From a virus, in the IMG/VR virus record IMGVR_UViG_3300012165_000002, positions 1 to 64,000 of that record: a stretch of 64,000 nt of DNA, one strand, 5' to 3'. Below the pieces are notes generated by a model that had not been told where the DNA came from, did no database searches, and saw only the letters and a program-made list of their open reading frames with translations. The position numbers and the translations under genes are program-made. Below, piece after piece: positions 6,891-63,716 of the stretch. Each line of letters opens with the position of its first letter. Position 1 is the stretch's first letter.

Positions 6891-6936
6891 AAATCTTCTC
6901 CTTTTTTTTTAAAATTCATAGCGAACTATGTAAAAA

Positions 6937-7008
6937 CTCTTTGGGCAGGACTCGAACCTACAACTTACGGATTAACAGTCCGTCGTTCTACCATTGGACT
7001 ACCAAAGA
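6937..7008 (-). tRNA. tRNA-Asn (anticodon GTT)
   Basis: Reverse complement folds as a cloverleaf: acceptor TCTTTGG/CCAAAGA, anticodon arm ACGGA-CTGTTAA-TCCGT, T arm GTAGG-TTCGAGT-CCTGC. CCA not encoded. Confidence 0.85.
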
Positions 7009-7014
7009 ATATTT

Positions 7015-7097
7015 AAGGGCGGTGATGGATTTGAACCACCGTGCCTTTCAGTCGTGATTTACAGTCACGCGCAATCGACCGCTCTGCCAACCGCCCT
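7015..7097 (-). tRNA. tRNA-Tyr (anticodon GTA), long variable arm
   Basis: Reverse complement: acceptor AGGGCGG/CCGCCCT, anticodon arm CGTGA-CTGTAAA-TCACG, long variable arm, T arm GGTGG-TTCAAAT-CCATC. CCA not encoded. Confidence 0.8.
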
Positions 7098-9784: not shown

Positions 9785-10004
9785 TTGAGTATAAATAAGG
9801 ACAATTATTATCAATACATCCATTTATTATGCTACTTTTAATACTATCATCAGCCAATGCCATCTCTTCGTCTGAAACAAATTCGACTGCAAATGTGTAA
9901 TTGGTTTTTTGACATAGCCATTGGACACATCTCTCATCTATTTTAGTTTTATTATTAAAGAAATCTATTTGACATTCTGATAAAGTTAAGTTTTCATTTT
10001 TCAT
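9702..10004 (-). CDS. Hypothetical protein (100 aa)
   Basis: ORF-track frame. The basic C-terminal tail KKGDKIGKRNQRAKRKNK looks like an out-of-frame reading of the next gene. Confidence 0.5.
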   Translation of the reverse strand: MKNENLTLSECQIDFFNNKTKIDERCVQWLCQKTNYTFAVEFVSDEEMALADDSIKSSIINGCIDNNCPYLYSNESSNLSKKGDKIGKRNQRAKRKNKCS

Positions 10005-10070
10005 TTTTATACTTCTTTCTTTGATGGATTTTTTCTTTTAAAATATTAAAATATTTGCTATACTTACATT

Positions 10071-10190
10071 AGGCATGATGTGATTAAATCCACTTGGAAA
10101 CACACGTTCCCATTCCGAACACGCCGTTAAGCAAGTGGATGTTGAAAATACTACATTTTATGTGGGAAGATAAATTTTGCATTGCTGCTT
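10071..10190 (+). rRNA. 5S rRNA-like element (divergent, possibly degenerate)
   Basis: CACACGTTCCCATTCCGAACACGCCGTTAAGC (10101-10132) closely matches the Firmicutes 5S loop-C/helix-III core. It is enclosed by a perfect 9-bp helix-II-like pairing, ATCCACTTG (10088-10096) / CAAGTGGAT (10132-10140). Distal half AT-drifted; helix I weak. Confidence 0.55.
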
Positions 10191-10294
10191 AGTTCTATTG
10201 CCCAACGATAGAACGTTAAAGAAGATGCGTACTTCTTATGCACATCGCAAATGTAGCGCATTACATGATGTTGCTTTTTAGGGAGGGGTAATCT

Positions 10295-10420
10295 ATGCCC
10301 TCGATGAAATCGAAATACGGTCTGAGTTACTCCTTGGTTGGAGGGGTTATCATGACCAAGTACGAAAAAATTATGCTTGCAATCAGCATAATCATGCTTG
10401 CTGTCACTATTTTTAAATAA
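10295..10420 (+). CDS. Small hydrophobic peptide (41 aa, or 22 aa from internal ATG 10352); candidate type I toxin-like
   Basis: GGGAGGGG RBS before ATG 10295 and GGAGGGG before ATG 10352. C-terminal MTKYEKIMLAISIIMLAVTIFK is a single TM helix. Rho-independent terminator follows. Confidence 0.45.
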   Translation: MPSMKSKYGLSYSLVGGVIMTKYEKIMLAISIIMLAVTIFK

Positions 10421-10432
10421 ATAGCTTGCAGG

Positions 10433-10463
10433 AAAGAGAGATCAACCAGTTCTCTCTTTTTTT
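10433..10463 (+). terminator. Rho-independent terminator
   Basis: AAGAGAGA (10434-10441) / TCTCTCTT (10451-10458) stem, 9-nt loop, T-run to 10463. Confidence 0.75.
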
Positions 10464-10555
10464 ATCATCTTTCTTTGGTGGGATTTTGCCCCTCCATATA
10501 TGGTTAAAGTAGATATGGGTTATTTTACACTGAATTTAAGCCATTTCCCATATCT

Positions 10556-13330
10556 TCATTTGTGATTTTTCGGAAAATTTAGGCCGTTTTTTGTAAATTT
10601 AAGCCCGTACAAATTAATATTTCCATTTATTTTTTTTTCTAAATTCAACTTTTCTTCCCTATTGTTTATTAATAATTCAAAAAATAATTCTGTTTTTTGT
10701 GATGACAAAATATTAAATAGTTGTTTTGCCATATCCTTATATTCATCCAGATCAATACATTTAATTAGATAAATCATTGTATTATTATTAATACTCATTG
10801 TTTTAATTAAATTTAAAACATCATATTTTAATTCTGTCGATTTTATATATCTCTGATTTAATGACAAATTACTATCCCATATCATTTTTAATTTATAATT
10901 CAATACTCTTATTATTTTTATTATTTTATTAAACTGCTTATAATTAACATCCTTTATATTATACTTACTCAAATCAATAATATCACTAAACTTGCAAAAC
11001 TCCTCAGTTGTCTTTTTATTCCTAAACTTATTCATAGCTCGTTGTAGATAATCCATAGAGGTGTTAAAGTTTTTGTATAAAATATTTGGATTCAACTTAT
11101 ATCCGTTGTTTAGTGTTATCATTTTGAAAAATTTAGGCTTAACAAACTTACCATCTTCATAAACTCTGTATTTTTCTTTGATTTTGTTTATTTCTTTGGC
11201 GTTATCAACTTCAAACTCTTTTTTGGCACGATCTATTTCAATACAGGACATGACAGCCAGTTTGCATATGTCGAGGTATAGTTCGTTTATGCTTTCTATG
11301 GTTTCGTTATGATTTAACTTATGCCAAAACCAACTATTCAACTCCTGGCTTAAATTAATTATTTCGCCAATCTTATTTACACTCGTTCTTATATCTAAAT
11401 CGCATTGATGCTCCCAAGTATAATATCTATCTATTTTTCTCGCCTCTACAAAATTTGTAGGAATTTTAAAGTTATGATAATTTCTTTTGGCTATATCAAT
11501 TAGCAACTTTTCGTTTGATATTAATATTTGATCCGAATCAAAGTCCGCTCCGTTCAATCTTTCCAATATATTATCATTAATACTATTGATACAAACAATC
11601 TCATTAGTTAAACCAAAATACTTATCAATCTCTTCATTGTGCTTATTTACAGGCAACCATACATTGCCATTACATACATGTGGGCTACGTGAAGCAATCA
11701 ACTCTTCGCCATCATTGAAGTTTTTGCTATAAACAGCACCCACTTTAATCTCATTAGCACCATCAAACTGCCCAATCGAATGTTTCAACATTTCAAGTGG
11801 ATTGCCAAACAATACAGAGTAGTTGCCTTTAATTAAAATATGTCCTTCTCTTGAATTGTTAACATAAGACTTAATGACTTTGGCTTTAAAATCATCGTAC
11901 AACTTAGTCTCGTAAAATTTAGTATTTATTCCCATCAGTTTAAATATAATGTCGTTTTTCGTTATCGTTTCATTTTCGTCAAAAGAAATTTCGCTTTTGG
12001 GATATTTAATATGATATCTCAAAACATCGGGGTCTGTCCGTAGCAGATTTAAATAATCAATTGTGGGCTGCAAAAACTCAGTCATTTCATCAAAAGTAAA
12101 TTGTAGTGTATTTAATAGTTGATAATGGGCCTGAACAAGTTTACCATCAAAATAATGAGTCTGTTTCTCATGCTTGACTATTCCAAAATCCTCATCCAAA
12201 TTTTCAAGCCACTTTTTCATCATTTCTACTTTGTCTTTGCCAAACTTTAAATATTTTACACTATTTGGCGTTGTTATTAATTTTATGTCTTTAATATCTT
12301 CTGCCAAAGTAAATCCATTCAACTGATCGACCTGCGTAATTCCGTTGTCATCAAAAAATTTCTGTATTTTAGTTTTAAAAGAACAGGTTTTAAAAAAGCG
12401 ATTACGAAGCAGCAAACTTCCAAAGTCTTTGTAGTTTTCGAACATAGATTCGTCTAATAGCGATTGTCCGTCCCATATTGAATTGCTTATCTCAACAGTT
12501 TCGTCTTTAGCTTCAAGCCAGCCATCAATTACCTTTACAGACACAACATTGTCGTTGAATATACTGTCATAGTCATCAATTAAAAGAATATTTTCTTTTT
12601 TTATTTTTAAAATATCTATTATGCTGCTTGAGGTTAGAGAAATATAACTTTCATATGCCGCCAAATCAATCTTATCGCCAATTTTTACATTTAGACCACA
12701 ATCTTCCCATTTATGAAAAGGTGTATACAGCCTTTCGTTAATGAATAAGCACTTTCCGATACGAGAACTTCCTGAACTTCTCTTAAATCTCCTGTATTTT
12801 ATTCCGTTAGAATAAAAACCATTCTCGTACAATTCATTGCGCAGTTTAGCTACTGTCTGCAATACTTTTATATTTTTTTTATTTACAACATAACATCCCA
12901 ACTCTTCATCAAATTTAAAATAATCTCCCATCAATTCTGAATTAATATTATTTTCAACAGGCTGATTTAGCTTTATTGCGATTAATTCATCATCGACAAT
13001 GCACACATTGTCAACAAACTCGCATTCTTTCAATGTGTATTCAAAAGCTACATACACATCTTTTCCAAATTTATTATAAACCTTATTGCTATAATTGAAA
13101 TTAACATTTATAATATGATTAGTGAATTCTTTTCCGTTCTTATCAAAAAACGAAAAGTCAGACCTCCTATATACCTTTTTATAAATCTCTCTCAATTTTA
13201 TTAAATCTAAACTATAATCAAATGCGTTGAGATATTTTTTGGTATTAATCTCATTATTTTTATTTTTTATATTATATCCTAAAATTTCATCGGCATCTTT
13301 GTCTGAAATTAAGTTGTTACTTATATACAA
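10556..13330 (-). CDS. YonO-like single-subunit DNA-dependent RNA polymerase (double-psi beta-barrel, RdRP/beta-prime related)
   Basis: 924 aa. LNGADFDSDQ (DFDSD codons at 11531-11545) matches the beta-prime metal-binding signature NADFDGDQ and the DxDGD motif of YonO/cellular RdRPs. TTG start 8 nt after GAGG. Confidence 0.7.
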   Translation of the reverse strand: MYISNNLISDKDADEILGYNIKNKNNEINTKKYLNAFDYSLDLIKLREIYKKVYRRSDFSFFDKNGKEFTNHIINVNFNYSNKVYNKFGKDVYVAFEYTLKECEFVDNVCIVDDELIAIKLNQPVENNINSELMGDYFKFDEELGCYVVNKKNIKVLQTVAKLRNELYENGFYSNGIKYRRFKRSSGSSRIGKCLFINERLYTPFHKWEDCGLNVKIGDKIDLAAYESYISLTSSSIIDILKIKKENILLIDDYDSIFNDNVVSVKVIDGWLEAKDETVEISNSIWDGQSLLDESMFENYKDFGSLLLRNRFFKTCSFKTKIQKFFDDNGITQVDQLNGFTLAEDIKDIKLITTPNSVKYLKFGKDKVEMMKKWLENLDEDFGIVKHEKQTHYFDGKLVQAHYQLLNTLQFTFDEMTEFLQPTIDYLNLLRTDPDVLRYHIKYPKSEISFDENETITKNDIIFKLMGINTKFYETKLYDDFKAKVIKSYVNNSREGHILIKGNYSVLFGNPLEMLKHSIGQFDGANEIKVGAVYSKNFNDGEELIASRSPHVCNGNVWLPVNKHNEEIDKYFGLTNEIVCINSINDNILERLNGADFDSDQILISNEKLLIDIAKRNYHNFKIPTNFVEARKIDRYYTWEHQCDLDIRTSVNKIGEIINLSQELNSWFWHKLNHNETIESINELYLDICKLAVMSCIEIDRAKKEFEVDNAKEINKIKEKYRVYEDGKFVKPKFFKMITLNNGYKLNPNILYKNFNTSMDYLQRAMNKFRNKKTTEEFCKFSDIIDLSKYNIKDVNYKQFNKIIKIIRVLNYKLKMIWDSNLSLNQRYIKSTELKYDVLNLIKTMSINNNTMIYLIKCIDLDEYKDMAKQLFNILSSQKTELFFELLINNREEKLNLEKKINGNINLYGLKFTKNGLNFPKNHK

Positions 13331-52373: not shown

Positions 52374-52401
52374 TTTGGTACCGGCACAAATGTCGGTACC
52401 A
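52374..52401 (+). terminator. Hairpin upstream of the MazF-like gene (terminator or regulatory)
   Basis: TTGGTACCG / CGGTACCAA 9-bp stem, 10-nt loop, no U-run. Confidence 0.45.
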
Positions 52402-52433
52402 AACTATATTATAATAGGAGGTTACATAACAAA

Positions 52434-52775
52434 ATGAGAAGTATAAAAAGAGGAGAAGTGTATACAATAGATTTTGGAAACGAAGTTGTAGGTTCTGAAC
52501 AGGGTGGCAAGCGATTGGGAGTGATCCTGCAAAATAATAAAGGGAATTTACATTCACCAACAGTTATTGTGGCTACTATCACAAGCAAATGTAAAAAAGT
52601 AAAACAGCCAACACATGTAATAGTACATGATCCATTAAGAGAGGTGTCTTGTATTTTATTGGAGCAATTAAAAACAATTTCTGTAGACAGATTAGGTATG
52701 AAAATTGGAGAGTTAAGCGAAAGAGATATGAAGAGAGTTGATAGGGCATTAAGTATTTCATTGGGATTAAATTAA
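52434..52775 (+). CDS. MazF/PemK/Kid-family endoribonuclease toxin
   Basis: 113 aa; RGEVYTIDFG..VGSEQGGKRLGVILQNN..PTVIVATITSK..ILLEQLKTISVDRLG..GELSERDMKRVDRALSISLGL follows the family pattern end to end. Confidence 0.85.
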   Translation: MRSIKRGEVYTIDFGNEVVGSEQGGKRLGVILQNNKGNLHSPTVIVATITSKCKKVKQPTHVIVHDPLREVSCILLEQLKTISVDRLGMKIGELSERDMKRVDRALSISLGLN

Positions 52776-57917: not shown

Positions 57918-59888
57918 ATGTTATTGCATAAGGGGTTTATTGACATTCAGAGATTTCAAACAAAACATGCAGATTGTTTTGAAAAAGGAGATATAATTTC
58001 AGTTCAAGAAAAGTTGGATGGAAGTTGTAGCAGCATCCAGCACGACAACGAAGAAAATAAATTAATGTGCTTCTCAAGAAGAAAAACATTAAGTCCAACA
58101 GAAACATTAATGGGATTTTATGAATATGTTCAGAAATTAGACATGGATATATTTAAAAAGTATTCAACATATAGGCTATTCGGCGAGTGGAACTTGTCTC
58201 ATCTTGTTAAATATGCTCAAGAGGAAATTAAAAAGTTCCACTGCTTTGATATTTATGACACAATGAATAAAGTTTGGTTGCCACAAGATATAGTCAAAGC
58301 GATTTGTAAAGAGGGAAATATTCAAATGGTTCCGATATTTTATGAAGGAGAGTTTATTTCATGGGATCATATTCAAGAATTTATTGGAAAAACTCAATTC
58401 GGATTGAATAAGGGCGAAGGTTGTTTTCATGGTAAGACACAGATATTAATGAGTGATGAAACATCTAAGCCAATATCACAAGTAAAAGTGGGCGATATGG
58501 TTAAATCATATAATGAAAAAACAGGATTAATAGAAGATAAAAAAGTATTAAATGTATTTAATAATGGAGAAAAACCTATCACAGAATGGGGGAGATATGG
58601 GGTATCGGTATATCGACATAAACATTGTGATGTGCCAGAATCAAATATGCTTATTGTAACACACAACCATAAAATTTGGAATGGCAATGGGTACACTCCA
58701 ATATCACAAAGTAATACATTTTATCAATATGATTATGTAATTACAAAAGAAATTAAACAAGCTATTTTGGGTTTACTTTTATCTGATGGTAGTATTGACA
58801 ATAGATCAAATTTGGTTATTATTACACAAAAAAAAGAAAATCGTGGAGATGATTTATATAGATTGTTTTCGCCAATATCTAATAAACCTTATTACCATAT
58901 TAGCGGAAAAGGTACTGAGATGATAACATTTACTATAAATAAAAGACACACAAGAGATTGGATCAACAAATATATAAACTCAAATGGAAGAAAAAATTGC
59001 AAAGCTATTATTGAGGATTTAGACGAAATTGGAATGGCATTTTTTTACATGGGTGACGGCACTTCATATAAAAAAGGCAGAGCAGAAATATCAACGCACT
59101 CTTTTTCTTTAGAAGAAATTGATGCAATGAAAAATAAAATTAATGACCTATATAATGAATATCCGACAGAAAAAATAGATAAAAGAGTTAATTTACAAAA
59201 ATATTCTGGTATTTCACTACTATTTAATGCTCAACTTCGAGAAAGATTTGAGTCTATAAGTGGTAAATATTTTTTACCATCTTTTAGATATAAAATAAGA
59301 AATGAACATGAATGGATTTCGCTATCAATAGAAAAGGGATTAGTGAAAAAACCAATATTATCACACCACAATGACATTACAGAAAACAATACTAATTATA
59401 AAAAGTGGCGCAATATTGAAGCTTTTGATATTGAAGTAGAAGATAATCATAATTATTTCGCAGAAAAAGTGCTTGTTCATAATTGTGTAATCAAGAATCA
59501 GACCAAACTTAATAATCCTGACGAAAGAAAACCGTTTGTTGTAAAGTTAGTATCAACTGAGTATCAAGAAACTGCAAAAAACAGACACATTAGAGAGCCT
59601 TTGAGTGCAGATGAGATTGCTAAAAGAGAATACTTGAGCGATCTGACAGCAAGTATTGTTACTGAAAATAGAGTTGAAAAAAATCTTTATAAAATGATTA
59701 CTGAAAATGTTTTGCCTGAAGATTGGGATGAAACAAGTATGAGTTTGATTGCAAAAGAGCTTCCAAGAATTATTTATAATGATTGTGTCAAAGAAGAAAA
59801 TGATACTGTAGAAAAAATAGAAAACTTTGGCAAACTTTGTGCTTCTCACACAATGCAGATTGTAAGAAAAATGTTGCAAAATAGATAA
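57918..59888 (+). CDS. Rnl2-family ATP-dependent RNA ligase containing an intein
   Basis: Nucleotidyltransferase motifs in order: I QEKLDGSC, III LFGEW, IIIa FHCFDIYD, IV GEG-[intein]-CVIK, V FVVKLVS. Followed by an Rnl2-like helical C-terminal domain. Confidence 0.75.
   Translation: MLLHKGFIDIQRFQTKHADCFEKGDIISVQEKLDGSCSSIQHDNEENKLMCFSRRKTLSPTETLMGFYEYVQKLDMDIFKKYSTYRLFGEWNLSHLVKYAQEEIKKFHCFDIYDTMNKVWLPQDIVKAICKEGNIQMVPIFYEGEFISWDHIQEFIGKTQFGLNKGEGCFHGKTQILMSDETSKPISQVKVGDMVKSYNEKTGLIEDKKVLNVFNNGEKPITEWGRYGVSVYRHKHCDVPESNMLIVTHNHKIWNGNGYTPISQSNTFYQYDYVITKEIKQAILGLLLSDGSIDNRSNLVIITQKKENRGDDLYRLFSPISNKPYYHISGKGTEMITFTINKRHTRDWINKYINSNGRKNCKAIIEDLDEIGMAFFYMGDGTSYKKGRAEISTHSFSLEEIDAMKNKINDLYNEYPTEKIDKRVNLQKYSGISLLFNAQLRERFESISGKYFLPSFRYKIRNEHEWISLSIEKGLVKKPILSHHNDITENNTNYKKWRNIEAFDIEVEDNHNYFAEKVLVHNCVIKNQTKLNNPDERKPFVVKLVSTEYQETAKNRHIREPLSADEIAKREYLSDLTASIVTENRVEKNLYKMITENVLPEDWDETSMSLIAKELPRIIYNDCVKEENDTVEKIENFGKLCASHTMQIVRKMLQNR
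58422..59483 (+). mobile_element. Intein (354 aa) with LAGLIDADG endonuclease domain, inserted in ligase motif IV
   Basis: Starts CFHGKTQILM (Cys codon 58422-58424) and ends KVLVHN (Asn codon 59481-59483), followed by +1 Cys. LGLLLSDGSI and FFYMGDGTSY motifs. Confidence 0.85.
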
Positions 59889-60469: not shown

Positions 60470-60691
60470 ATGGAATTTTGGACTTCGGAAAATCAAAAAG
60501 ATAAAATTTTAAAATGGGAAAATATGACTAAAAAAGATTTAATAAAAAGTTTATTAGAATATGATAAAAAATTATTTTATGCAGAAGAAAAAATTGCAAA
60601 TAGAGATGAAAGAATTGGAAGACAAAGTAATGATATATTTAGAGCAAATCATAATGGTAGAAGTAGAGACGATATTTATTATAAGGATTAA
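60470..60691 (+). CDS. Hypothetical protein (73 aa)
   Basis: AAAGGGAGGATAATACT RBS. Confidence 0.6.
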   Translation: MEFWTSENQKDKILKWENMTKKDLIKSLLEYDKKLFYAEEKIANRDERIGRQSNDIFRANHNGRSRDDIYYKD

Positions 60692-60705
60692 TAAAGGAGG
60701 AAAAC

Positions 60706-62013
60706 ATGTATAATTATAACTGGAGTCCAGTTTATAATTTAGTTATGCAAATCAAGTATGAATATATTGAAAAATTTGGAAATATAAATTATGAGCAAAC
60801 CGAAAACCAAACTTGCTTGGAGATTTGGATTGAGAAACTAAATAACAAAAAATATTTAGATATTTTTAAATACATTCAAGTGAATCAAAAAGATACAAAA
60901 GTATTAATCAGATATGGGAATTATGCCGACGTGTTTGGCGGCGAAGAAGATATTACATCTGATAAATTTTGGGCTATGCACGACGGATTTTATACAGAAT
61001 GCAGAAGTATAACGATTGATTTGCAATTAGAAATTATTTTACTATCTGGATTCAAAAAATTCAAGAACCTAAATGAAGGAGCCGAGAATCAGTTAAATGT
61101 TATTCTTGAAGAAATTGAAACTGCAAAAAATATTGAAATAACCAACAAATTAGATGGAAGTCTTCAATTGGCACGTTATATTTGGATGTATGGCAAAATA
61201 TTTATGTCTGGCTCACAAGCAATTGATGTTGATAAATCATGGAGATTGCAAGACGGATACAATATGCTATTATCAGATAACAATTACAAAACTATGCTGA
61301 TAGAGCATCCAAGCTTAACTTTTATATTCGAATTTATTAGCATGAAAGATGCACATGTTGTTAATTATCAAAAAGAGCAAGAGGGTTTATATTTGATTGG
61401 AATGAGGAATGTGTATACTGGAGAACAATTTTCCTATAAAAAAGTAAAAGAGTTTGCCGATAAATATAATGTAAAAACAACTGAGATATTCAATAAAACG
61501 TTTGATGAAGTTTTGGAGGATGTTAAGACTAAAAAATCTAATGAAGCCGAGGGATTCGTGATTGATATTGAAAATCAAGATGGATATGTTCATAAGATAA
61601 AAGTCAAGGTCGATGATTACATTGCAATACACCGGATTCTATCTAAAATATCCTCTATAAACCTGATTATCAAATCAATTGCGCTGGATTCGTTTGATGA
61701 TTTAATTTCTAAAATTCCAGAATCTTACCGCGACAGAGTATATAAAGTTGCAAATGTCGTTCTTGACTATATAAGAAACATGGATAAGAACGTAAAAGAA
61801 TACTTTAGCGAGGCTCCAAAGGATACAAAGAAAAATTTTATGATATATGTTGATGCGAATGTACCTGTTGAATATCGGGGATATGTTAAAAATTTATATC
61901 TAGGAAAGAAAAATAATTATATTATGGGTGGAAGTGAAAAATGTCCATCGTTCAAGACTTTGAAAGAGATTGGAATTGAAAATTATTCTGAAATATTTGA
62001 ATTGGAGGAATGA
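60706..62013 (+). CDS. Rnl1-family (T4 RnlA-like) RNA ligase
   Basis: Motif I NKLDGSL. Motifs IV-V AEGFVIDIENQDGYVHKIKVKVDDY, compared with my memory of T4 Rnl1 EGYV..HFKIKSDWY. Size and extra N- and C-terminal regions fit Rnl1. Confidence 0.7.
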   Translation: MYNYNWSPVYNLVMQIKYEYIEKFGNINYEQTENQTCLEIWIEKLNNKKYLDIFKYIQVNQKDTKVLIRYGNYADVFGGEEDITSDKFWAMHDGFYTECRSITIDLQLEIILLSGFKKFKNLNEGAENQLNVILEEIETAKNIEITNKLDGSLQLARYIWMYGKIFMSGSQAIDVDKSWRLQDGYNMLLSDNNYKTMLIEHPSLTFIFEFISMKDAHVVNYQKEQEGLYLIGMRNVYTGEQFSYKKVKEFADKYNVKTTEIFNKTFDEVLEDVKTKKSNEAEGFVIDIENQDGYVHKIKVKVDDYIAIHRILSKISSINLIIKSIALDSFDDLISKIPESYRDRVYKVANVVLDYIRNMDKNVKEYFSEAPKDTKKNFMIYVDANVPVEYRGYVKNLYLGKKNNYIMGGSEKCPSFKTLKEIGIENYSEIFELEE

Positions 62014-62735
62014 AATTGATAAAATATATTCACGGCTCAGAAGATAGTATTGATTTAGATATTTATTATGTATTTGATGAAATGCCTGAATTTAAAGAAT
62101 GCCAAGAGTTTTGTTCTTCTAAAATTGAAAATAGAAATATTATTGTTATTAAAAATGGAATTGTTGTAGAGTGCTTTAAAGGGCCGACGGACGAAGTAAA
62201 CAACAGTTTGTTGGACACATATAATTTACATCAACAAGAATGCCCATTATTAATCACAAAAAGACTTTCAAGGGATGTTTTGATTAAAGATTTAAGAGCA
62301 TTAAGAGGAATGATTTCATACTTATCAAGAACAGAATATAGGACAATTGTAAAGAAAGCATTAAAAGGAAATTTCACAGACAGATTAAATGTCATGAAGA
62401 ATGTGAATTTCAATGTTTTGTTAGAGCAAGAGTTGAGCAAGACTTTTAACTTGAAAGATATATTGAAAGTTTATGCTTTTCAATTAGGTCAGTCGCTTGG
62501 ATTGCACAGAGAAAAAGAATTGTATACAAAAACAGATATTGCAAATGAGTTTGCTGAACTTAAACCGTTTTTATATAGACATGATGATTTTGATTTGAAT
62601 GACTTGGTTGATTATATTGAAATGTTTACTGACGTTTTGGATACGTACAATATTGAGGAGCTAGATAATAATATAACATTTTTCAAGGATTTAAATAGAA
62701 AAATCAATATAAAAAATGAAAAGGATGTGATATAA
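62010..62735 (+). CDS. Hypothetical protein (241 aa); possible minimal nucleotidyltransferase-fold protein (weak)
   Basis: N-terminal IHGSEDSIDLDIYYV loosely resembles the GS..DxD signature of Pol-beta-type nucleotidyltransferases. Translationally coupled on both sides (ATGA, TAATG). Confidence 0.3.
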   Translation: MKLIKYIHGSEDSIDLDIYYVFDEMPEFKECQEFCSSKIENRNIIVIKNGIVVECFKGPTDEVNNSLLDTYNLHQQECPLLITKRLSRDVLIKDLRALRGMISYLSRTEYRTIVKKALKGNFTDRLNVMKNVNFNVLLEQELSKTFNLKDILKVYAFQLGQSLGLHREKELYTKTDIANEFAELKPFLYRHDDFDLNDLVDYIEMFTDVLDTYNIEELDNNITFFKDLNRKINIKNEKDVI

Positions 62736-63655
62736 TGGATAAAGCGACGTTAATCGTAATGTGTGGGCTTCCGGCGAGCGGAAAATCTACTCAATCTAAA
62801 ATATTATCAGAAAAATTTAATGCCAAAATTCATGCGTCAGACGAAATCCGAAAAGAATTAAACATAACAGAAGAAACAAAAGAAAGTAATGCTGAAGTTT
62901 TTCAGTTGCTGCATAGTAGAATTAAGGGCGATTTAAAAAATGGAAAAAATGTGATATATGATGCAACAAATATAAATTATAAGAGACGCATGAATTTTTT
63001 GAAAGAATTGAGCAGAATAGATTGTGAAAAGATATGTTATTTTATGGCAACGCCTTATGAGGATTGCGTTAAGAATAATAACAAAAGAGAAAGTGGCATT
63101 CCAGAACATGTTATTAAGAGAATGTATAAGAATATTTATATTCCACAATATTTTGAGGGATGGGATAATATACGAATTATTTGGAATTTTAAAGAAAACG
63201 ACTTCAATGTATGGTCTTTATTTGATAAACTAGATTATATCAGTCAAGACAATCCCCATCACAGTCTGACAATCGGAGAGCACTGTCGTGAATGTTGTAA
63301 AAATATTGGGTCAGATGGCAAAGATAATTTATTGCTGTCTGCATTATTACATGATAGCGGAAAAGCATTTTGTAAGGATTTTAAAAATTCAAAAGGAGAA
63401 ATAACAGAACACGCGCATTTTTTTCAGCATCATTTGGTTTCTGCATATATGGCATTATTTTATTTAGAAGGAGAGCATAAAATTGCCAATAATGAGATGC
63501 TTGAAATTTGTAAGCTTATCACTTGGCACATGCAACCTCATTTTATTGAAACAGACAAACAGATTAATAAATACAAAAAATTATTGGGAGAAGAATTCTG
63601 GAATGACCTTATGATTTTGCATGAGGCTGACATTAAGGCTAAAAATAAAAATTAA
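62735..63655 (+). CDS. Bifunctional end-healing enzyme: P-loop polynucleotide 5'-kinase domain fused to an HD phosphohydrolase domain
   Basis: N-terminus VMCGLPASGKST (Walker A), ASDEIR, IYDATN. C-terminus NPHHSLTIGEH, LLHDSGK, FQHHL, LHEADIKA (H..HD..H..D layout). Confidence 0.7.
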   Translation: MDKATLIVMCGLPASGKSTQSKILSEKFNAKIHASDEIRKELNITEETKESNAEVFQLLHSRIKGDLKNGKNVIYDATNINYKRRMNFLKELSRIDCEKICYFMATPYEDCVKNNNKRESGIPEHVIKRMYKNIYIPQYFEGWDNIRIIWNFKENDFNVWSLFDKLDYISQDNPHHSLTIGEHCRECCKNIGSDGKDNLLLSALLHDSGKAFCKDFKNSKGEITEHAHFFQHHLVSAYMALFYLEGEHKIANNEMLEICKLITWHMQPHFIETDKQINKYKKLLGEEFWNDLMILHEADIKAKNKN

Positions 63656-63660
63656 TTTTC

Positions 63661-63716
63661 AAAGACTATTGACATTCTTTCACTATTGTAGTATAGTAAA
63701 GATGTCAATGGTCTTT
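63661..63716 (+). promoter_or_regulatory. SigA-type promoter embedded in a 15-bp inverted repeat
   Basis: TTGACA (63669-63674), 17-nt spacer, TATAGT (63692-63697). Arms AAAGACTATTGACAT (63661-63675) / ATGTCAATGGTCTTT (63702-63716), one mismatch. Confidence 0.65.

Follow-up and report, generated by a model that had tools for sequence, protein, structure and literature searches.

A predicted RNA-repair cassette in a viral contig encodes a probable Pol-beta-fold nucleotidyltransferase of an unnamed virus family

The cassette, its ligase and its end-healing enzyme

The window analysed here is the whole stretch of 64,000 nucleotides (nt) formed by positions 1 to 64,000 of the IMG/VR virus record IMGVR_UViG_3300012165_000002. 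It contains a cassette of three plus-strand genes, which encode an Rnl1-type RNA ligase of 435 amino acids (aa), a middle protein referred to here as protein X, and a 306-aa protein with a kinase domain followed by an HD domain, referred to as the kinase-HD protein (Table 1). All three genes were present in the open reading frame (ORF) listing of the window on the strand and at the positions reported by a first-pass annotation, which had been made by a model from the sequence alone. The tight coupling that it described was seen as well, with overlapping stop and start codons and no spacers between the genes: the ATG at 62010 overlaps the ligase stop codon TGA (62011-62013), and the kinase ATG at 62735 shares one base with the TAA of protein X (62733-62735). 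The length of 241 aa given for the middle protein holds for a start at ATG 62010, but a GGAGG stands 1 nt before this codon versus 7 nt before a TTG at 62016. Translation from the TTG yields MIKYIHGS, the same N-terminus as in most X homologs. Because of the GGAGG spacing and this N-terminus, TTG 62016 is probably the true start, giving 239 aa. Even with this start, the three genes remain tightly packed.

By its profile matches and motifs, the first protein is an Rnl1-family RNA ligase. It matched PF09511 (RNA_lig_T4_1) over residues 98-305 (E 4e-22; 79.6 bits, cutoff 28.3), with ~95 extra N-terminal residues ahead of the Pfam domain. The match to phrog_562 (E 1.4e-37), the T4 RnlA family annotated as "RNA ligase and tail fiber attachment catalyst", ran from residue 44 to residue 403, with profile positions 28-352 of the 377 covered; this extent is what sequence comparison offered on a possible Rnl1-specific C-terminal helical domain. 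The test for covalent nucleotidyltransferases comprised motifs I (KxDG), IV (EGhh) and V (hKhK), and all three were found: KLDGS at 148 with lysine K148, EGFV at 282 and HKIKVK at 296. A phmmer search with the ligase returned no PDB match at E ≤ 0.01. The closest relative from a cultured phage was the KLEB27-3 RNA ligase (Bacillus phage; 37% identity, 91% coverage).

The kinase domain of the third protein matched AAA_33 (E 9e-19, residues 6-134), the phrog_505 polynucleotide kinase profile (E 3.7e-19) and the bacterial Pnkp model TIGR04075 (E 3.7e-12). The best solved relatives were the kinase domain of C. thermocellum Pnkp (CthPnkp; 4gp7, E 8e-7), PSTK and T4 Pnk (1ly1, E 2e-3). The Walker A motif, GLPASGKST at residues 11-19, and an SDxxR motif aligned with those of CthPnkp, in which SDFCR corresponds to SDEIR of the window protein. 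The HD domain matched PF01966 (E 1.6e-7; 32.1 bits, cutoff 22; residues 176-299) and resembled the HD domain of CCA-adding enzymes (TIGR02692, E 7.7e-6). Its metal-binding motif residues are H175-H176, H206-D207, H232-H233 and D299, which lie in HHSL (175), LHD (205), QHH (231) and HEAD (296). The ligase, kinase and HD motifs quoted in the first-pass annotation were thus all located in the translations, and profile searches supported the three assignments far above chance.

In similar enzymes known under the name HD-Pnk, one protein likewise combines a P-loop kinase with an HD phosphoesterase, and its gene is linked to that of a ligase. The Runella enzyme has 2',3'-phosphoesterase and 5'-kinase activities, and the 3'-phosphatase activity of the RM378 polynucleotide kinase (PNK) has been assigned to its HD domain. 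Because of these two and the HD domains of E. coli CCA enzymes, the HD domain in the window is predicted to act as a 2',3'-cyclic phosphodiesterase or 3'-phosphatase. The motif ALLHDSGK is common to the RM378 and window proteins. The HD domain precedes the kinase in Runella slithyformis HD-Pnk and Deinococcus radiodurans PNKP, in line with the order given in the first-pass annotation, and a direct check of the RM378 genome gave the same order, with the HD motif of Rm378p110 at residue 66 and its P-loop at 193. In the window protein, by contrast, the P-loop lies at 11 and the HD motif at 206. Judged by this motif order, it is a permuted form of the characterised HD-Pnk enzymes. Rm378p110 (L072, 48060-49145) is annotated as 'probable poly A polymerase'. 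It is the only ORF in the RM378 genome with polynucleotide-kinase similarity and is presumably the published RM378 PNK, which makes its RefSeq product name misleading.

At least 80% of the kinase-HD protein was matched in 42 phage records. Among the matches listed, the high-coverage relatives came mainly from Bacillus phages (PK-3, FADO, PBC2, Tsamsa and relatives) and included gp264 of phage G. These proteins share 32-35% identity with the window protein over 97-99% of its length and have the same kinase-then-HD order. In PK-3, PBC2, Tsamsa, FADO and phage G (gp264/gp265) the Rnl1 and kinase-HD genes are adjacent, and in PK-3, PBC2 and phage G they were seen to adjoin directly. Thus, the pair of ligase and kinase-HD is ordinary, already annotated in cultured Bacillus phages, and not new. 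Nothing lies between the two genes in the Bacillus phages, whereas X occupies this place in the window, and a short RlaP-like nucleotidyltransferase gene is found 1.5-2 kb upstream of the Bacillus phage cassettes. The kinase-then-HD permutation is common, yet as far as could be found it has no biochemical characterisation in the literature, and we know of none for the proteins of the Bacillus phage cassettes.

Distribution of protein X and its linkage to RNA-repair genes

Protein X had no Pfam match at E ≤ 1 and nothing meaningful in PHROGs or NCBIfam, and its profile returned only noise from the PDB sequences. A word-indexed search found 235 homologs, and with an exhaustive hidden Markov model search the family grew to 866 clusters at 50% identity, of which 383 had E values under 1e-30. 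Public sources offered no informative name for any member, though an earlier informal classification of phage G gp208 is possible. No deposited phages had X except Bacillus phage G (gp208, 48% identity), the Lak megaphages and one 636-kb uncultured phage; phage G was the single cultured carrier found. The IMG/VR matches were on contigs of 72-508 kb, and the 18 matches among 185,579 reference genomes were all on contigs of metagenome-assembled genomes (MAGs). All members seen came from large phages, giant-virus-like contigs or MAG contigs.

In a Foldseek search of a viral structure library, the X model (described below) strongly matched uncharacterised proteins from Klosneuvirus, Terrestrivirus and Indivirus. 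Genes in which X is fused to Rnl1 or to a HAD_PNKP phosphatase domain were found on contigs with giant-virus-like or eukaryote-like content (L048, 594-7671; L050; L051), namely a threonyl-tRNA synthetase-like aminoacyl-tRNA synthetase, WD40, ankyrin, Bax1-I and ribosomal protein S6e. The content of these contigs together with the structural matches suggested that the X family spans phages and giant viruses.

The genes for the Rnl1 ligase, X and the kinase-HD protein were contiguous in four different orders (Table 1) and in three clades. Identities between the clades were 27-34% for the ligase, 36-41% for the kinase-HD protein and 37-50% for X, which is the best conserved of the three. Because the clades are deeply diverged, the linkage has outlasted both long separation and gene rearrangement. 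X is the sole nucleotidyltransferase candidate in the window and in four other cassettes. In the L008-type cassette, a short gene resembling RlaP, a nucleotidyltransferase family discussed below, sits between the ligase and X.

Fusions provided a second kind of linkage. Full X-Rnl1 fusions with an intact KxDG motif were found in five clusters (P0152, P0161, P0171, P0188 and P0219), and on contig L048 a metallophosphoesterase gene directly precedes such a fusion. X was fused to a phosphatase domain of the T4 Pnkp type (HAD_PNKP, PF25109, E 2e-17) in three clusters and on one 437-kb phage contig. Six further clusters had an N-terminal NT5C-like HAD domain, and five of these also carried a short ligase-like tail without the catalytic lysine. 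In total, 15 candidate X-ligase fusions were considered; only the five above retained KxDG, and the short tails of the HAD-X proteins were rejected as degenerate.

At other loci, the genes near X encoded RNase T together with a PolyA_pol/CCA-type enzyme, a free-standing protein homologous to the cassette HD domain, Rnl2, or RlaP, and a poly(A) polymerase-like gene lies near X in phage G. When the neighbours of 23 X loci were clustered with BLAST, almost no recurrent neighbour appeared; the adjacency of X to repair genes became clear only through domain profiles and the additional MAG loci. A ~200-aa gene upstream of X, considered as a conserved partner, proved heterogeneous (RlaP-like, RNase T, or of no recognised family).

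Predicted fold and possible role of protein X

Conservation in X was analysed across 171 members sharing less than 60% identity, the members compared being as low as 31% identical. Residues G9, S10, D15, D17, D61 and E62 were at least 98% conserved. Conservation of at least 96% was found for G9, S10, S13, D15, D17, N43, G58, D61, E62, N64, N65, T70, H74, Q76, R88, K93, R99, R111, K115, K153, Q158, Q161, E170, K174 and R190. Nine arginines and lysines of the helical domain were at least 90% conserved. An acidic triad with a GS pair in the N-terminal domain and a set of basic residues in the helical domain would be expected where a metal-dependent site for nucleotidyl transfer faces a surface that binds polyanions.

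An AlphaFold (AF2) model of X built from a 47-sequence alignment had a predicted local distance difference test (pLDDT) score of 94.7 and a predicted template modelling (pTM) score of 0.90. In the model, a small alpha/beta domain of Pol-beta-like type spans residues ~1-75, helices make up a second domain at ~90-210, and a small beta unit at 215-233 ends the chain. In a Foldseek search of the PDB, the top nine matches were all Pol-beta-fold nucleotidyltransferases with a helical C-terminal domain, that is, Hailong HalB (eight chains; E 0.01-0.11, probability 0.57-0.99, template modelling (TM) score 0.30-0.46) and ANT(4')/kanamycin nucleotidyltransferase. Weaker matches were the MNT antitoxin chain 7bxo_D and the HEPN-like protein 2hsb, and the only coherent set of PDB matches was this nucleotidyltransferase block. 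The Pol-beta motifs, hG[GS] and [DE]h[DE]h on adjacent strands, are represented by H8-G9-S10 after strand 4-8, within HGSEDS at 8, and by D15-L-D17-I (DLD at 15), which begins strand 17-22; these are the first two strands of the model, the usual place for both motifs in this fold. The candidates for the third carboxylate, D61/E62, sit at a helix start, not on strand 3.

The first-pass annotation had offered a weak nucleotidyltransferase guess for the middle protein. This guess gained strength from the confident model with its coherent fold matches, from the invariant GS, DxD and DE residues in the diverged members, and from the fusions and the rearranged but conserved neighbourhoods that tie X to Rnl1 and to Pnkp-type phosphatases. 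X is probably a divergent Pol-beta-fold nucleotidyltransferase, as judged from the modelled structure. We considered it very improbable that X is instead a non-catalytic specificity or scaffold subunit of the ligase or kinase-HD protein that has kept only the shape of a nucleotidyltransferase. The atypically short loop between GS and DxD, the absence of sequence matches to active nucleotidyltransferases, the physical tie to the ligase in the fusions, and the degenerate ligase-like tails of HAD-X proteins, which show that inactive domains occur in the family, would agree with such a subunit; the near-total conservation of the acidic triad, GS, H74, Q76 and the basic residues is an active-site signature and argues against it.

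HalB (9dbh, 9dbi and 9dbj) is the closest solved structure to X. As modelled, X has in common with HalB a Pol-beta core, a helical C-terminal domain of similar size and a DxD near the N-terminus, the catalytic D21/D23 in HalB and D15/D17 in X. HalB is a component of a bacterial defence system which, according to the literature, makes tyrosine-primed oligo-dA that inhibits HalA, whereas X comes from viruses and is tied to RNA ligases. A role for X in anti-defence was also weighed, in which it would be a nucleotidyltransferase directed at proteins or small molecules and not an RNA polymerising enzyme. It could, for example, silence a host RNase of the HEPN type as an MNT-like AMPylase, or keep a Hailong-type channel closed by making oligonucleotides as HalB does. 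Its position beside repair genes would then reflect no more than a shared use against one host attack. This role would fit the structural matches to HalB, the MNT antitoxin and the HEPN-like helical domain of 2hsb, the many X loci with no repair gene nearby and the Lak phages with no detectable partners. However, an enzyme that neutralises toxins would hardly be expected in covalent fusions with Rnl1 and with phosphatase domains of the T4 Pnkp type, the genes seen adjoining X included no HEPN or HalA-like partner, and the likeness to HalB is at fold level only (11-13% identity). We regarded the anti-defence role as improbable.

RlaP (PF10127), a family that includes T4 NrdC.11, owes its name to its association with RNA ligases. 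It resembles X in being a two-domain protein (nucleotidyltransferase plus helical domain) of ~200-340 aa, and in both phages and bacteria its gene accompanies those of RNA ligases and end-healing enzymes. Pseudomonas RlaPs add one or two nucleoside monophosphates to RNA 3'-OH ends, and RlaP partly restores the aminoacylation of tRNA missing one anticodon-loop nucleotide (PMC12776372). Jumbo phages have been described as combining ligases, kinases and phosphatases with RlaP, CCA-adding or Thg1 nucleotidyltransferases. X shows the same genomic association with ligases and end-healing enzymes as RlaP, but no sequence relationship between the two was detectable. The Pfam scan (E ≤ 1) gave no PF10127 match, and X as a divergent RlaP was rejected after hhalign returned 0.1% with T4 NrdC.11 as well as with a profile of six phage RlaP sequences. 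As a positive control, the same profile found the 210-aa Pol-beta family at 96.5% (E 8.6e-10), a family to which X showed no relationship with hhalign. The RlaP motif GSxxYGxxxxxSDxD has ~10 residues between GS and DxD, whereas HGSEDSxDxD of X has 4. Viral proteins annotated as nucleotidyltransferase or RNA repair, which were taken by annotation and not by family, matched the X model only at TM ≤ 0.3. At the level of sequence, X is not RlaP. The family of ~200-210 aa that includes the 'nucleotidyltransferase' of Bacillus phages PK-3 and PBC2 and the 210-aa protein of the sister cassette (L008 type) falls below the Pfam RlaP threshold and is related to RlaP by the profile-profile comparison just given.

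Because an RlaP-like gene and X share one cassette, the function of X may differ from simple addition of nucleotides to 3' ends. It could act on RNA ends in repair through a chemistry that differs from RlaP-type extension, and the candidates include adenylylation of the 5'-phosphate, reversal of abortive ligation intermediates, Hen1-like marking of the junction against re-cleavage, and rebuilding of the tRNA CCA end. The position of X beside the RlaP-like enzyme in the L008-type cassette argues against redundancy, X is flanked at one locus by an RNase T-like exonuclease on one side and a PolyA_pol/CCA-type enzyme on the other, and X is better conserved than the ligase. Nothing specific favours any one of the candidates, though, and the window and the four other cassettes with X as sole nucleotidyltransferase fit an RlaP-like role. 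We judged a different chemistry to be unlikely, yet worth serious attention.

On balance, we favoured the reading that the cassette is a phage RNA-repair operon, most likely for tRNA, in which X acts as a 3'-end nucleotidyltransferase between healing and sealing. Every activity, the RNA substrate, the order of the steps and the reaction of X are what we infer from homology and genomic context. The substrate would be RNA cut by ribotoxins that leave a 2',3'-cyclic phosphate and a 5'-OH. The kinase domain would phosphorylate the 5'-OH, and the HD domain would then open and remove the cyclic or 3' phosphate to leave a 3'-OH. Next, X would use nucleoside triphosphates to add one or a few nucleotides to this 3'-OH where the nuclease or trimming had removed residues, and the Rnl1-type ligase, adenylylated on K148, would join the 3'-OH to the 5'-phosphate. 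The phosphatase-X fusions are consistent with a need of X for a 3'-OH, and the X-ligase fusions with its acting just before sealing.

Several observations weigh against this reading. Two unbiased scans found the ligase and kinase-HD genes adjacent to X at only ~5 of 33 distinct X loci, and in the same scans most X neighbourhoods were uninformative and consisted of small genes of unknown function. In phage G, the kinase-HD and Rnl1 genes lie ~52 kb away from X, and the 15 records of Lak megaphages that carry X had no tblastn match to the window ligase or kinase-HD protein. The sister cassette encodes an RlaP-like nucleotidyltransferase in addition to X. The fold match is weak and at fold level only (best Foldseek E values 0.01-0.06, TM ≤ 0.46), and neither Pfam, the PDB profile search nor hhalign linked X to any nucleotidyltransferase. 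Finally, the 4 residues between GS and DxD compare with the usual 9-13, and the usual intervening helix is missing.

A bolder form of the RNA-repair reading was also proposed, tentatively and as something short of probable: that X is the founder of an essentially virus-restricted Pol-beta-fold family, unrelated to RlaP in sequence, with its own RNA-repair step, substrate or chemistry. Its coexistence with an RlaP-like enzyme in the sister cassette would speak for an own substrate or chemistry rather than a simple replacement of RlaP. If this is true, the cassette would be a self-contained heal-rebuild-seal operon able to defeat nucleotide-excising ribotoxins of the RloC type.

Phage tRNA repair is a classic counter to anticodon nucleases. 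The repair of tRNA by T4 Pnkp and Rnl1 against PrrC follows the same logic as the pathway proposed here, with a phage-encoded 5'-kinase, a 3'-end phosphoesterase and an Rnl1-family ligase; the window ligase falls in the Pfam and PHROG families of T4 Rnl1, and the window kinase is related to T4 Pnk. The phosphoesterase of T4 Pnkp is a HAD domain, whereas that of the window is an HD domain. The window genes form one operon with a nucleotidyltransferase-like gene inside it, whereas T4 RlaP (NrdC.11) is encoded elsewhere. A nucleotidyltransferase in an RNA-repair operon is a known theme owing to RlaP, so the earlier idea of a 3'-end rebuilder has precedent. What appears to be new is the X family, which is large, virus-restricted, unnamed and unrelated to RlaP in sequence, yet tied to Rnl1 and Pnkp-type domains. 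Recent work on RlaP suggests that repair systems need a nucleotide-restoring enzyme against nucleases that also remove a base. The cassette points to a second, RlaP-unrelated enzyme family in this position and so to an extra step in undoing host attack on tRNA. It also offers a compact three-protein system for the joint in vitro reconstitution of kinase, phosphoesterase, nucleotide addition and ligation, and it is a possible source of new RNA 3'-end-modifying or ligation-coupled enzymes for biotechnology.

Other features of the window and related contigs

Table 1. Coordinates of the cassette, of other window features and of related loci
Feature	Location	Strand	Evidence or remark
Shine-Dalgarno GGAGG	60696..60700	+	5 nt upstream of ligase ATG; sequence read
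Rnl1-family ATP-dependent RNA ligase, 435 aa	60706..62013	+	PF09511, phrog_562, motifs
Protein X	62010..62735	+	241 aa (ATG 62010) or likelier 239 aa (TTG 62016); unnamed virus family
Kinase-HD protein, 306 aa	62735..63655	+
Predicted polynucleotide 5'-kinase domain	62735..63184	+	residues ~1-150; AAA_33, phrog_505, TIGR04075, PDB matches
Predicted HD phosphohydrolase domain	63243..63655	+	residues ~170-306 of kinase-HD protein; PF01966
Promoter-like site (TTGACA, 17 nt, TATAGT)	63669..63697	+	11/12 consensus match, directly 3' of cassette
73-aa ORF	60470..60691	+	ends 15 nt upstream of ligase start
Rnl2-family ligase ORF	57918..59888	+	split by intein
Rnl2 ORF, ligase N-part	residues 27-168
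Rnl2 ORF, intein N-terminus	from residue ~169
Rnl2 ORF, LAGLIDADG_2	residues 281-413
Rnl2 ORF, intein C-terminal motif	residues 501-523
Rnl2 ORF, Rnl2 C-terminal part	residues 511-654
PemK/MazF-type ORF	52374..52772	+	PF02452, E 4.6e-27
tRNA-Asn and tRNA-Tyr	6936..7097
5S rRNA match	10076..10185	+	Rfam 52.4 bits, gathering score 38; full model 1-120
ORF-free gap around 5S match	10004..10556		between minus-strand genes
Short RlaP-like gene	L008 7372..8004		also L009, L010, L021
Short RlaP-like gene	L011 1922..2527
Short RlaP-like gene	L012 1682..2272
Gene order ligase, X, kinase-HD	window
Gene order ligase, RlaP-like, X, kinase-HD	L008 group
Gene order kinase-HD, ligase, X	L055, L058
Gene order X, kinase-HD, ligase	L063, L065

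The GC content around the cassette is low (~27-30%), the coding strand of the window switches near 29-30 kb, and the nearest relative of the window was a 180.8-kb IMG/VR viral contig. Judged from its consensus match alone, the strong promoter-like site directly 3' of the cassette probably belongs to the following transcription unit, at whose start the cassette would end. The 73-aa ORF ahead of the ligase may belong to the transcription unit of the cassette.

Three further elements that the first-pass annotation had listed in the window were recovered. The Rnl2-like ORF is real by its profile match, although it is split by an intein carrying a LAGLIDADG homing endonuclease. The tRNA-Asn and tRNA-Tyr genes were found, and the MazF-like RNase corresponded to a phage-encoded PemK/MazF-type endoribonuclease toxin. 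One or two PemK/MazF genes were also present a few kb from the repair cassette in the related contigs L008-L010. The window contained no RlaP, no 210-aa Pol-beta protein and no CCA-type enzyme.

Within the window, no 16S or 23S rRNA was found, and the 5S-like sequence had no blastn match among 50,697 deposited phage records. This sequence scored above the Rfam gathering score, aligned with the full model and retained the conserved core of loop C and helix III. A 5S-like gene in an apparent large phage would be unusual.

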